From the NCBI GenBank assembly GCA_010093605.1, contig MU004197.1, forward strand, positions 1,550,707 through 1,605,038: DNA of 54,332 nt, written 5' to 3'. The position numbers were made by a program, and so were the translations under genes. Source of the DNA: Lophium mytilinum (Eukaryota). The notes beneath the pieces are model-generated. The model was not told the origin of the DNA and did not search any database. It saw nothing but the letters and a program-made list of their open reading frames with translations. Positions 9,453 to 10,763 of this stretch are shown here, piece after piece; position 1 is the first letter of the stretch; each line of letters begins with the position of its first letter.

Positions 9453-10763
9453 ATGGACGTCTTTTGGACCCTCCCGCCCGTTTCGAGGTCAGTAACCGCT
9501 CCAGTCTGCCTCTCGAACATTCGCATTCTCTAGGCATGCAACCATATCTGATGCTGATCCTAGAACCATCACAGCAGCCACCGTCGCCGTCTCCGCGCTG
9601 GTCTATGGCGGCCTGCTGTCCGCGGAACCGCTCCTCTTCGCTCGGGAGTACCTGTGGCTACTCCCGCCTCAGATATGGCGTATAGCGACCGCTTTCCTTG
9701 TGACGAAGCCGAAGCTATCGATCATACTTGACCCATACTTCTGTACGAAAGCATTGCATCTGCTGCTTATCCGGCCACATAGCTAAATCTGCCAGTGTAC
9801 ACATATGCAAGCTCCCTCGAGACCGAATCTCCCCGCTTCACTGCACCCGGAGATTTCTTCACCTACCTCATCTTCGTAGCCCTTCTCATCGTGGTATGTC
9901 GCGCCGCAACCAGCTTCTCTTTCTCAGCCCCCATTTCACACACTCCCCCAAATCAAGCACCTGTTGTACACGCTACACCGTCCGAAACCTCTAAACTGCC
10001 CGCCCAGCCCACCCTCAGTGGCTGCCGCGGTTCCTGAACAGAGGGAGATTACCCCCGCGCTTCGCACACCCCATCATTCGCAATCATAAAACAAACCGGG
10101 GTTGTGTGCGGCGTGGGCATGGTGGGAAATGCCATTTGAGAAAGCCCCGCGGACCCCGAGTTCCGACGGTGGTGGTGATGGCTCCCTACAAATTATCCCC
10201 TACGCCCCCTTCTCATTACACAAATTATCACGCCCGATCGCATAATATGCATTATTCGGAGTGCGACGAATACGATGCTAATGAAACGGCAACAGGCATC
10301 CTCCGGCCTCGCCCTCCGAGGCTACTTCTTCTTGCAACCCCTCACCCTCGCCCTCGCCTACACCTACTCGCAGGACAACCCACACCGCAAGGTCTCCTTC
10401 TTCATCCTGACCTTCGACGCCATGTACCTGCCGTACAGCATGCTCTTCCTGACCTTCGTGCTCGAGGGGCCGGGTGCCGCGTTGCACCAGTCTATGGGTC
10501 TGTTCGCGGCCCACGCGTTCGATTTCCTGACGAGGATTTGGCCGACTTTTGGTGGTGGGAGGAACTATATCCAGACGCCGATGTTTGTGAAGAGGGCGTT
10601 TGGGGCGGATAGCCCGGCGCCGAGGCAGAGGGGGTATGGTACGGCGGTTCCGGCGAGGGATGCGTCCGCCGCGCCGGGGGCGCAGAGGGCGACGGGGAGG
10701 GCGTTTGGGTTTGGGGGGCAGTGGGATGGGAGGGGGCCGGGGAGGAGGCTGGGTGGGGAGTGA
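9453..10763 (+). CDS. Derlin (Der1/Dfm1 family ERAD rhomboid pseudoprotease), 4 exons
   Basis: Exons 9453-9487, 9564-9742, 9796-9893 and 10296-10763 give MDVFWTLPPVSRT...PPQIWRIATAFL (WR motif)...YLPYSML...GLFAAHAFDFL and a C-terminal SHP-box-like 'GRGPGRRLGGE'. All introns are GT-AG with branch sites. Confidence 0.9.
10025..10152 (+). ncRNA. Candidate structured intronic RNA (possible atypical box C/D-like snoRNA) in derlin intron 3
   Basis: Lies in a 402-nt intron. Closing stem CCGCGG 10025-10030/10147-10152; long internal stem 10054-10072 with 10098-10117; C'-like GAGGGAGA at 10041 and D-like TTGA at 10136. Confidence 0.5.

Follow-up and report, generated by a model that had tools for sequence, protein, structure and literature searches.

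A predicted intron-hosted box H/ACA snoRNA of the snR43 family in a derlin gene of Lophium mytilinum

Why does a derlin gene in the 54,332-nucleotide stretch of Lophium mytilinum DNA analysed here (the window) carry an intron several times longer than the gene's other introns, and what is the structured RNA that seems to lie inside it? A preliminary description of the locus placed a GC-rich structured core in this intron and offered it as an uncharacterised ncRNA, which might be an atypical chaperone-type snoRNA or a cis-element regulating derlin splicing under ER stress. Our analysis indicates that the element at 9986-10193 on the forward strand is very probably a box H/ACA snoRNA, about 208 nt long and hosted by the intron, and the ortholog of Nc ACA9 of Neurospora crassa; its first pocket (pocket I) is predicted to guide pseudouridylation of the LSU 966-equivalent and of 5.8S 73. 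By its sequence features it is an ordinary box H/ACA snoRNA, probably of the snR43 family, and a predicted guide for an LSU rRNA pseudouridine.

The derlin gene and its long intron

The gene and its host intron, both as the preliminary description had them, are arranged as follows.

9453-9487, 9564-9742, 9796-9893 and 10296-10763, + strand: derlin coding sequence, an open frame of 259 aa
9894-10295, + strand: third intron of the derlin gene, which hosts the snoRNA; phase 0, with GT..AG ends and 402 nt that spliced contigs skip

The derlin identity is confirmed by a Pfam DER1 match on exon 4 (E 2e-17), and the intron is real, since spliced contigs of the runs X3, X9 and X7 (assembled contigs, the label of these runs as RNA being a guess) join 9892/3 to 10295/6. 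It is also long relative to the remaining two introns of the gene, which measure 76 and 53 nt. Intron sequence flanks the snoRNA on both sides, 92 nt towards the 5' splice site and 102 nt towards the 3' splice site, and the intron is long and its position is kept because this structured snoRNA is hosted inside. A coding reading of the intron core was rejected, as stop codons occur in all six frames, and a tRNA scan gave 0 genes. In the contigs of the runs guessed to be RNA, the cover of the intron core amounts to 1-9% of the exon depth, and record 2 of X3 (9865-10267) runs unspliced through the 5' splice site, with a depth about 1.4% that of the exons. In X9 and X7 no contig covers the intron outside the core; nothing is concluded from these uncovered flanks, because the termini of an RNA are not visible in contigs.

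Between related species the intron core has diverged less than the coding exons: in X9 the core has 9 differences in 207 nt and the exons 19 in 170, 9 in 97 and 66 in 467, and in X7 the core has 2 differences and 1 gap in 166 nt and the exons from 4 in 181 to 15 in 234. In X5 the segment 10199-10283 is swapped for an unlike sequence, and the flanks near the splice sites are not conserved. Furthermore, 80 derlin loci were gathered from metagenomes using the exon-4 protein alone, and for 73 of them a covariance model locates the snoRNA in this derlin intron, each time as one copy, on the strand of the gene and just upstream of exon 4. Among the seven loci that lack the element, four are on contigs that begin at exon 4 or no more than 48 nt from it, one is on a contig beginning inside the final 25 nt of the RNA, and two are intron-less. 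On the metagenome contigs L006, L008, L019 and L037 intron 1 is absent and the snoRNA intron is kept; the near-identical contigs L005 and L012 retain intron 1.

Architecture and relatives of the element

The predicted RNA is built of hairpin I, an H box, an extra middle hairpin, hairpin II and an ACA box 3 nt from the end, with the parts given below.

9986-10193, + strand: predicted mature box H/ACA snoRNA, about 208 nt (cmsearch with the covariance model R1, 160.5 bits, E 1e-45, model positions 1-206, the window itself being in the model seed)
9988-9992, + strand: hairpin I lower stem, 5' strand CCTCT, pairing with AGAGG at 10040-10044
9993-9999, + strand: pocket I 5' guide strand AAACTGC, with CTGC invariant and pairing with GCAG(T) 3' of LSU U945
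10000-10030, + strand: hairpin I upper stem and loop, with 10000-10003 paired to 10027-10030 and 10005-10008 to 10021-10024
10031-10039, + strand: pocket I 3' guide strand TTCCTGAAC, with TTCCT invariant and pairing with CTCAGGA 5' of LSU U945
10040-10044, + strand: hairpin I lower stem, 3' strand AGAGG (helix 1)
10046-10051, + strand: H box AGATTA (consensus ANANNA), given as such in the Nc ACA9 drawing too
10051-10123, + strand: middle (third) hairpin, helices 4-6, whose apical loop 10073-10097 carries the conserved ATCATTCGCA
10124-10134, + strand: hairpin II lower stem, 5' strand, with 10124-10127 paired to 10183-10186 and 10131-10134 to 10179-10182
10135-10143, + strand: pocket II 5' strand TTTGAGAAA, kept by most orthologs and replaced in about five lineages and in Nc ACA9
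10144-10173, + strand: hairpin II upper stem and loop (helix 9, compensatory changes in 8 of 8 pairs)
10174-10178, + strand: pocket II 3' strand GGTGA, consensus GGTGT or GGTTT
10179-10186, + strand: hairpin II lower stem, 3' strand TGGCTCCC
10188-10190, + strand: ACA box, followed by the 3-nt tail 10191-10193

In a structure-blind MAFFT alignment of the orthologs 88.1% of cells pair, against 36.6-48.1% when the partners are slid by 1-3 columns, and 30 of 52 pairs show compensatory changes, the observed values being attained by 0 of 500 shuffles; in the alignment fitted to the model 91.0% of cells pair and the compensatory changes reach 33 of 52 pairs. This covariation supports the three-hairpin structure. 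Helix 1 pairs in 92.9% of cells, its two inner pairs covarying in 13 and 15 cells, and in the upper stem of hairpin I helix 2 pairs in 95.7% and helix 3 in 98.9% of cells, with compensatory changes that include CCGC/GCGG to CCAC/GTGG and CAGC/GCTG to CGGC/GCCG. The middle hairpin contains the long stem 10054-72/10098-117 already noticed in the single sequence, which is present in both the MFE and the centroid folds and covaries across the orthologs (helices 5-6); helix 5 alone has compensatory changes in 10 of 13 pairs and pairs in 96.5% of cells. In the lower stem of hairpin II, helix 7 pairs in 99.5% and helix 8 in 87.8% of cells. An RNAalifold alternative, in which a UUCCU/AGGRA hairpin replaces the lower stem of hairpin I, was discarded, as it has no compensatory change and the lower stem has such changes. 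The single-sequence fold is not more stable than that of shuffles, whether for the core on the + strand (z -1.56, with 13 of 200 shuffles as stable), for the core on the - strand (z -0.61) or for the whole intron (z -0.65).

The H box reads ANANNA in 38 of 46 orthologs and ends in G in the other eight, and 48 of 49 distinct orthologs carry the ACA, one having AAA. In the H/ACA class the H or ACA box follows the target position at a distance of 14-16 nt. Here 42 orthologs have 16 nt, and four have 15 nt, between the H box and the base of the upper stem of hairpin I, and 49 of 49 have 14 nt between the ACA and the base of the upper stem of hairpin II. The fold with pockets, both boxes, the 14-16-nt spacing and, for pocket I, a bipartite rRNA complementarity are the features of the class that are present. 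As in generic intron-encoded H/ACA snoRNAs of fungi and animals, the intron holds a single snoRNA in sense orientation, with the hairpin-hinge-hairpin-tail order, the boxes, the 14-16 nt rule and a bipartite guide; unlike in those, a third hairpin supported by covariation follows the H box and precedes the 3' hairpin, and its loop is nearly invariant. The conserved block starts at ACCTC and stops 1-3 nt past the ACA; the element begins about 40 nt upstream and ends about 40 nt downstream of the GC-rich core to which it had been confined; its 3' end was set from this stop of conservation and from the Nc ACA9 cDNA.

No Rfam model matches the window at the gathering score, and searches of 9700-10500 and 9980-10200 at E up to 10 give chance-level matches only, the sole H/ACA match, to a trypanosomatid model, scoring 12.4 bits where the gathering score is 35. 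Among the checks proposed with the preliminary description, the Rfam search finds no family, and the comparison of orthologous introns finds the element conserved and covarying. The proposal that the long intron hosts a structured ncRNA is borne out by the covariation, the boxes and the 73 of 80 loci, the RNA being a snoRNA, and the claim that this RNA is uncharacterised is superseded by its probable N. crassa ortholog, which was cloned and seen on northern blots in 2009 (PMC2780460).

That RNA, Nc ACA9 (EU780988; Liu et al. 2009, PMC2780460), is listed in Table 2 as 'Orphan' and 'Intron', with 201 nt and with cDNA and northern evidence. The sequence in Additional file 2 of the paper allows a comparison by eye, in which the blocks CCUCGGAAUAUCUGCCCGC, GCGGUUCCUGGAACCGAGGAAGAUUACC, CAUCAUUCGCAA, CAUGGUGGGAAUGC and CCCUACAUCU are common to Nc ACA9 and the element, and the element is visibly its predicted ortholog. 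The two are similar in length (201 against about 208 nt), both are intronic, and the termini of Nc ACA9 (AUCCUCGG... and ...CCCUACAUCU) coincide with those of the element. They are the same in the pocket I strands (AAUAUCUGC and UUCCUGGAA), the H box AGAUUA and the loop CAUCAUUCGCAA, and share the CAUGGUGGGAAUGC junction and the ACA plus 3 nt; the published drawing has the same three hairpins, H box AGAUUA and ACA-UCU. The upper stem of hairpin I is unlike in the two, through compensatory changes, and so is the pocket II 5' strand (UUUGGAUGA / UUUGAGAAA). H/ACA snoRNAs in N. crassa are mostly intergenic (16 of 20), only two being intronic. Moreover, PMC5824354 (Canzler et al. 2018) names 'AJ632018 (HACA_9)' and states that 'AJ632018 matches snR43', AJ632018 being from S. 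pombe. This paper thus appears to place Nc ACA9 in the snR43 family, if its numbering is read with HACA_9 as Nc_HACA_9. The target pair listed for S. cerevisiae snR43, 25S-966 with 5.8S-73, equals the predictions for pocket I, and at the sequence level the element has no match to any Rfam model. Yeast snR43 is an independent gene, whereas the element here is intronic.

Predicted rRNA targets and alternative readings

The target rRNA was a eukaryotic rDNA (L130) from an unrelated contaminant fungus, delimited with Rfam, which was met in an ITS3 primer scan of genome contigs (the same scan of viral contigs gave 0 matches); its LSU reaches model position 2260 of 3401, and the searches cover the SSU, the 5.8S and LSU 1-2260. 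Among all the U's of these, the best site for pocket I is LSU U945 in 44 of 45 orthologs, with 6+4 to 6+5 bp and a single U left unpaired where the pocket closes at its top. The target score is only modestly above chance: its best value is reached somewhere in the rRNA by 54 of 500 guides shuffled from the consensus and by 14 of 500 shuffled from the window. Positions 939, 945, 965, 969 and 983 of this LSU are all U, at a constant offset of 21 from the yeast positions 960, 966, 986, 990 and 1004, and by this offset, without alignment, LSU U945 corresponds to yeast 25S-966. The second fit of pocket I, with 3+5 bp only, is in 5.8S at U72, in the context GTGAA-T-T-GCAGA, and snR43 is listed for both 25S-966 and 5.8S-73 in published tables (PMC8307265, PMC5699541). 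From the complementarity and the known role of the family we infer that pocket I would guide modification of the LSU 966-equivalent and the 5.8S 73-equivalent. For pocket II, no consistent or convincing target was found in the SSU, the 5.8S and LSU 1-2260; its best site, SSU U32, is shared by just 19 of 45 orthologs, with 121 of 500 shuffles as good. A yeast LSU site considered for pocket II was dropped, there being no U at that place in the fungal LSU used here.

The middle-hairpin loop was examined in the same rRNA. The preliminary description had suggested that the exposed loop 10073-81 (ATCATTCGC) could pair with LSU. Across the orthologs the loop is nearly invariant (TCATTCGC or a one-base variant in 47 of 48 loops) and is complementary to GCGAATGAT at LSU 978-986 of the contaminant rDNA. 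Its partner at LSU 978-985 lies 33-40 nt 3' of U945, a nearness to the guided uridine that is unusual (6 of 300 shuffled loops), and in the window's own loop the complementarity to LSU reaches 9+9 bp at -20.2 kcal/mol. The duplex energy itself is not above chance, 111 of 300 shuffled loops being equal or better. A second LSU pairing that had been suggested, by GGGCATGGTGGGAA, is unsupported: this segment is not free, being taken up by helices 4 and 7 within the RNA itself. It is unlikely, in our estimate, that the RNA has a second, undescribed function beyond its role as the ortholog of snR43 and Nc ACA9. The loop UCAUUCGCA could pair with the LSU helix-38 sequence or with the 18S 5' domain, and the third hairpin could act as an auxiliary tether or as a pre-rRNA folding chaperone.

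A related reading gives up guiding altogether and takes the RNA as an H/ACA-shaped orphan or chaperone-type RNA, like snR30 or snR10, which docks on pre-rRNA via the middle-hairpin loop. It would fit the listing of Nc ACA9 as an orphan by the 2009 authors (PMC2780460), the lack of a consistent target for pocket II, the near-invariance of the loop UCAUUCGC and its complementarity close to U945. We hold it to be quite improbable, since the strands of pocket I are invariant and their top site is a known modified uridine, the yeast target of the same family, while the energy of the loop duplex is readily matched by shuffled loops, the second half of the 9+9 pairing in the window is not conserved, and 18S 86-95 is a better partner for the loop's G-variants (-16.0 kcal/mol). 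The atypical chaperone-type snoRNA first envisaged accordingly gives way to a box H/ACA snoRNA, by the boxes, the spacings and the covariation.

Two further readings depart from the H/ACA class. If the element acted in cis within the intron, as a regulator of derlin splicing or expression (during ER stress, for instance), and not as a trans-acting RNA, this would be consistent with the X3 record unspliced at the 5' splice site and with the four contigs that lost intron 1 and kept the snoRNA intron; any long intron is expected to give unspliced molecules, however, and the canonical boxes and spacings, the covarying hairpins, the unconserved flanks beside the splice sites (as in X5) and the sharp ends of the conserved block, which coincide with those of the cloned 201-nt N. 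crassa RNA, make this reading very improbable, and nothing supports a role in ER-stress splicing. A box C/D or U3-like snoRNA, closed by CCGCGG/CCGCGG and bearing degenerate C' and D-like boxes, is scarcely credible. The motifs quoted for it are all where they had been placed in this single sequence, and the closing stem is in its fold, but that stem pairs in only 50.9% of ortholog cells and the small GGCAT/ATGCC hairpin in 59.7%, with 284 of 500 shuffles as good. The box-like motifs are not conserved as boxes, GAGGGAGA being the 3' strand of the lower stem of hairpin I plus the start of the H box and TTGA lying within the pocket II guide strand; neither strand has a conserved RUGAUGA...CUGA pair with a terminal stem, and no Rfam C/D or U3 model matches inside the element. 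CTGA (10034-37) and GTGATGG (10175-81), also tried as boxes, read CTGG and GTGTTGG in the orthologs.

Proposed mechanism and significance

By analogy with intronic snoRNAs, the predicted box H/ACA snoRNA would be transcribed within the derlin pre-mRNA, Cbf5, Nhp2, Nop10 and Gar1 would assemble on it, and after splicing and debranching the intron would be trimmed by exonucleases to the protected RNA. The pocket I strands (..CUGC and UUCCUG..) would then pair on both sides of the 25S-966-equivalent uridine, in CUCAGGA-U-A-GCAG, which would be converted to pseudouridine, and the same pocket may additionally accommodate 5.8S U73 (GAA-U-U-GCAGA). Within the second function held above to be unlikely, the fixed place in derlin intron 3 across many lineages could tie the output of an ERAD component to ribosome modification; alternatively, this position could make the intron retention-prone.

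With this finding, the Dothideomycete studied here and its metagenomic relatives, more than 70 in number, gain a predicted snoRNA gene that is unannotated. Rfam 15 misses the family in Pezizomycotina, and the covariance model R1 would detect it. Furthermore, the conservation lends independent support to a predicted function, at the LSU 966- and 5.8S 73-equivalents, for a published orphan of N. crassa, and the snoRNA and its derlin host gene remain linked across distant lineages.

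The derlin gene and conservation of its third intron

The derlin assignment of the host gene comes from exon 4, which matches Pfam DER1 (E 2e-17) and is 94% identical over its length to a DER1-domain protein of Mytilinidion resinicola, the nearest named relative. Contigs from three public sequencing runs have 76, 53 and 402 nt precisely spliced out at GT..AG borders; because exactly 402 nt are skipped, the intron at 9894-10295, which far exceeds the other two, is real.

Features of the derlin gene and of the RNA in its intron 3
9453-9487, 9564-9742, 9796-9893, 10296-10763, +: derlin exons, open 259-codon frame
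9894-10295, +: derlin intron 3, 402 nt, host of the element, GT..AG, spliced contigs
9988-92/10040-44, +: hairpin I, lower stem
9993-99 and 10031-39, +: pocket I strands
10000-08/10021-30, +: hairpin I, upper stem
10046-51, +: H box AGATTA
10051-10123, +: middle hairpin, loop carrying ATCATTCGCA
10124-34/10179-86, +: hairpin II, lower stem
10135-43 and 10174-78, +: pocket II strands
10144-73, +: hairpin II, upper stem
10188-90, +: ACA box, followed by three more nucleotides

The decisive signal for the intron RNA is conservation. Between species, similarity is higher in mid-intron than in the coding exons in two runs: the contigs of X9 have 9 differences in 207 nt of intron core (10014-10220), compared with 19/170, 9/97 and 66/467 in exons, and those of X7 have 2 differences and 1 gap in 166 nt (10005-10170), compared with 4/181 to 15/234. 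In X5, a DNA run, unlike sequence stands in place of the intron tail (10199-10283). Derlin loci were also retrieved from metagenome contigs using only an exon-4 protein alignment as query, so that their choice was independent of the intron. Nearly all of the 80 loci obtained (47-72% protein identity) have, by blastn with the intron, a 63-75% identical block directly upstream of exon 4, equivalent to about 9985/9996 to 10190 of the window, and in alignments the conserved stretch starts at ACCTC (9986) and stops 1-3 nt past the ACA (10188-10190). A covariance model (R1), built from a MAFFT alignment of the element, has a single match in the window (9986-10193, 160.5 bits) and matches 73 of the 80 loci, once each and always on the strand of the gene; 38 seed sequences match by construction, and 11 more distinct sequences lie outside the seed. 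The other seven are uninformative about absence of the element: the contig starts at exon 4 or no more than 48 nt from it in L017, L063, L069 and L077 and inside the RNA's final 25 nt in L050, while L030 and L052 are intron-less with an uninterrupted reading frame. No locus among the 80 keeps the genomic intron without the element.

In four other loci (L006, L008, L019 and L037), derlin intron 1 is exactly missing and the snoRNA-hosting intron 3 is retained; comparison with 96-98% identical sister contigs (L005, L012) puts the absence at 104 nt and 46 nt. The alternative for these loci is that close strains differ by intron loss. The four contigs look like assembled partly spliced transcripts, as L030 and L052 look like fully spliced ones, and from partly spliced transcripts it would follow that splicing of intron 3 comes late or often fails to occur.

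Structure of the intron RNA

The conserved block is laid out as a box H/ACA snoRNA that carries one additional hairpin; its fold is conserved and covarying, with canonical boxes, on the sense strand of the spliced intron. The 52 pairs of this structure were tested on the structure-blind MAFFT alignment (38 distinct sequences), where 88.1% of cells are paired (slid controls 36.6-48.1%), with compensatory changes at 30 pairs and 0 of 500 shuffles reaching the observed value. A model-fitted alignment (49 distinct rows), which is biased towards the structure because of that fitting, gave 91.0% (36.3-48.4% in controls), compensatory changes at 33 pairs and again 0/500 shuffles. Of 46 orthologs, 38 have an H box that conforms to ANANNA and 8 have one with a final G; 48 of 49 carry the ACA, and pocket and box lie 15-16 nt apart in hairpin I and 14 nt apart in hairpin II. 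RNAalifold alone recovered the upper stem of hairpin I, the middle hairpin and hairpin II; the small invariant hairpin that it placed instead of lower stem I has 0 covarying pairs, compared with 2 in that stem, and was rejected. Single-sequence fold stability is not above chance: the + strand of 10020-10160 gives z -1.56 and its - strand -0.61, and the intron in full gives -0.65.

The preliminary description had proposed a structured RNA in this long intron, and the spliced contigs and the covariation in orthologous introns (30-33 of 52 pairs compensatory) bear it out. The sequence features that it listed are present, and its long stem is part of the supported structure as the middle hairpin, with the exposed loop conserved. 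Its CCGCGG/CCGCGG closing stem and GGCAT/ATGCC hairpin are paired in just 50.9% and 59.7% of cells across orthologs, a joint share reached by 284 of 500 shuffles, and their bases are assigned instead to the upper stems of hairpins I and II and to the point where the middle hairpin joins hairpin II. The box-like GAGGGAGA is made up of lower-stem-I and H-box bases, TTGA sits within a guide strand, and the C- and D-like motifs are unconserved in orthologs.

In a search against Rfam, which had been suggested as a check, no family reached its gathering score in any part of the window, and nothing meaningful turned up around the intron at E up to 10. The sole H/ACA match (9983-10048; E 4.6, 12.4 bits where the gathering score is 35), far below threshold, is to a trypanosomatid single-hairpin model and is probably chance; its span, exactly hairpin I and the first three bases (AGA) of the H box, does agree with the register of the structure. 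Another long intron had been described as hosting a snoRNA; since the whole 54 kb is without any Rfam family at gathering score, that RNA, if real, is likewise beyond the reach of Rfam.

Guide pockets and the middle-hairpin loop

Targets were sought in rDNA from eukaryotic contigs found with the ITS3 primer in prokaryote genome assemblies, with 18S, 5.8S and LSU delimited by Rfam and LSU scanned up to model position 2260 of 3401. This primer alone matched at least 59 rDNA stretches in prokaryote genome contigs; they are short, eukaryotic (mostly fungal-like) and spread over many bacterial assemblies and MAGs (L081-L139), and such rDNA in public prokaryote assemblies is contamination. The H/ACA rule applied has the 3' pocket strand pairing with rRNA 5' of the U, and the 5' pocket strand with rRNA 3' of U-N. 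Over SSU, 5.8S and LSU to 2260, the best site for pocket I is U945 in the LSU of locus L130, CTCAGGA-T-A-GCAG(T), where the consensus forms 6+4 bp and the window 6+5 bp. It ranks first in 44 of 45 orthologs, and of the 7 rDNA loci covering it, 5 share its context; next comes 5.8S U72 (GAA-T-T-GCAGA, 3+5 bp). By itself the score is only modestly unusual: among 500 shuffled guides of each kind, 54 made from the consensus and 14 made from the window reach it somewhere in rRNA. Positions 939, 945, 965, 969 and 983 of this LSU are all U and lie at a constant offset of 21 from yeast pseudouridines 960, 966, 986, 990 and 1004. Pocket I is invariant and complementary to a uridine modified in yeast. 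In two review tables, snR43 is given as guide for both 25S-966 and 5.8S-73 (PMC8307265; PMC5699541), and because the site corresponds by offset to this snR43 target, the 25S-966 equivalent is a credible predicted target.

For pocket II, no consistent target was found in SSU, 5.8S and LSU up to 2260: the best site, SSU U32, holds in just 19 of 45 orthologs and is equalled by 121 of 500 shuffles, and about five lineages have another sequence in place of its 5' strand. The middle-hairpin loop is complementary to LSU 978-986 (GCGAATGAT), 33-41 nt 3' of the pocket I target, and window positions 10073-10095 could form a two-part 9+9 bp duplex (-20.2 kcal/mol) with L130 LSU 962-986, a stretch including the equivalents of yeast 986, 990 and 1004. 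This pairing is weakened by the second half of the duplex (TCATAAAAC), which occurs in few orthologs (the L040, L045, L057 group) and is unconserved overall, by the energy of the conserved part, equalled by 111 of 300 shuffled loops, and by the G-variants of the loop, which fit 18S 86-95 better. Its only unusual feature is nearness to the target, matched by the best sites of 6 of 300 shuffled loops.

Known relatives and proposed function

Table 2 of Liu et al. 2009 lists the N. crassa snoRNA Nc ACA9 as a 201-nt 'Orphan' RNA from an 'Intron', detected by cDNA cloning and northern blot (PMC2780460). Its sequence in Additional file 2 starts with AUCCUCGGAAUAUCUGCCCGC, ends with CCCUACAUCU and includes GCGGUUCCUGGAACCGAGGAAGAUUACC, CAUCAUUCGCAA and CAUGGUGGGAAUGC, and the drawing in Additional file 3 has three hairpins, an H box AGAUUA and ACA-UCU-3' (PMC2780460). 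Compared by eye with these sources, the element shares the blocks in the same order and has the same ends; upper stem I is altered compensatorily and the 5' strand of pocket II differs. The fungal snoRNAome paper gives 'AJ632018 (HACA_9)' and 'AJ632018 matches snR43' (PMC5824354). Because low family numbers there track N. crassa numbering (CD_17, 26, 29, 32, 49, 53-55), we infer that HACA_9 is the family of Nc_HACA_9, which agrees with the independent prediction for pocket I. The element is very probably an unannotated ortholog of an already described, experimentally detected H/ACA snoRNA family, and the novelty claimed for it is lost.

Exonucleolytic trimming of the excised intron would free the snoRNA, which would assemble with Cbf5, Nhp2, Nop10 and Gar1, and the LSU 966-equivalent would then be isomerised, probably along with the 5.8S 73-equivalent. 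Evidence for expression in Lophium mytilinum is weak: spliced derlin mRNA is seen in contigs of runs whose RNA label is a guess, with an unspliced exon 3-intron contig in X3 (~1.4% of exon depth) and separate intron-core contigs in X9 (3%) and X7 (9%), from which small-RNA ends or level are not readable. Still mildly interesting are the strict linkage of the snoRNA to derlin intron 3 over many lineages, the conserved third hairpin with its loop, and a family that goes undetected by Rfam.
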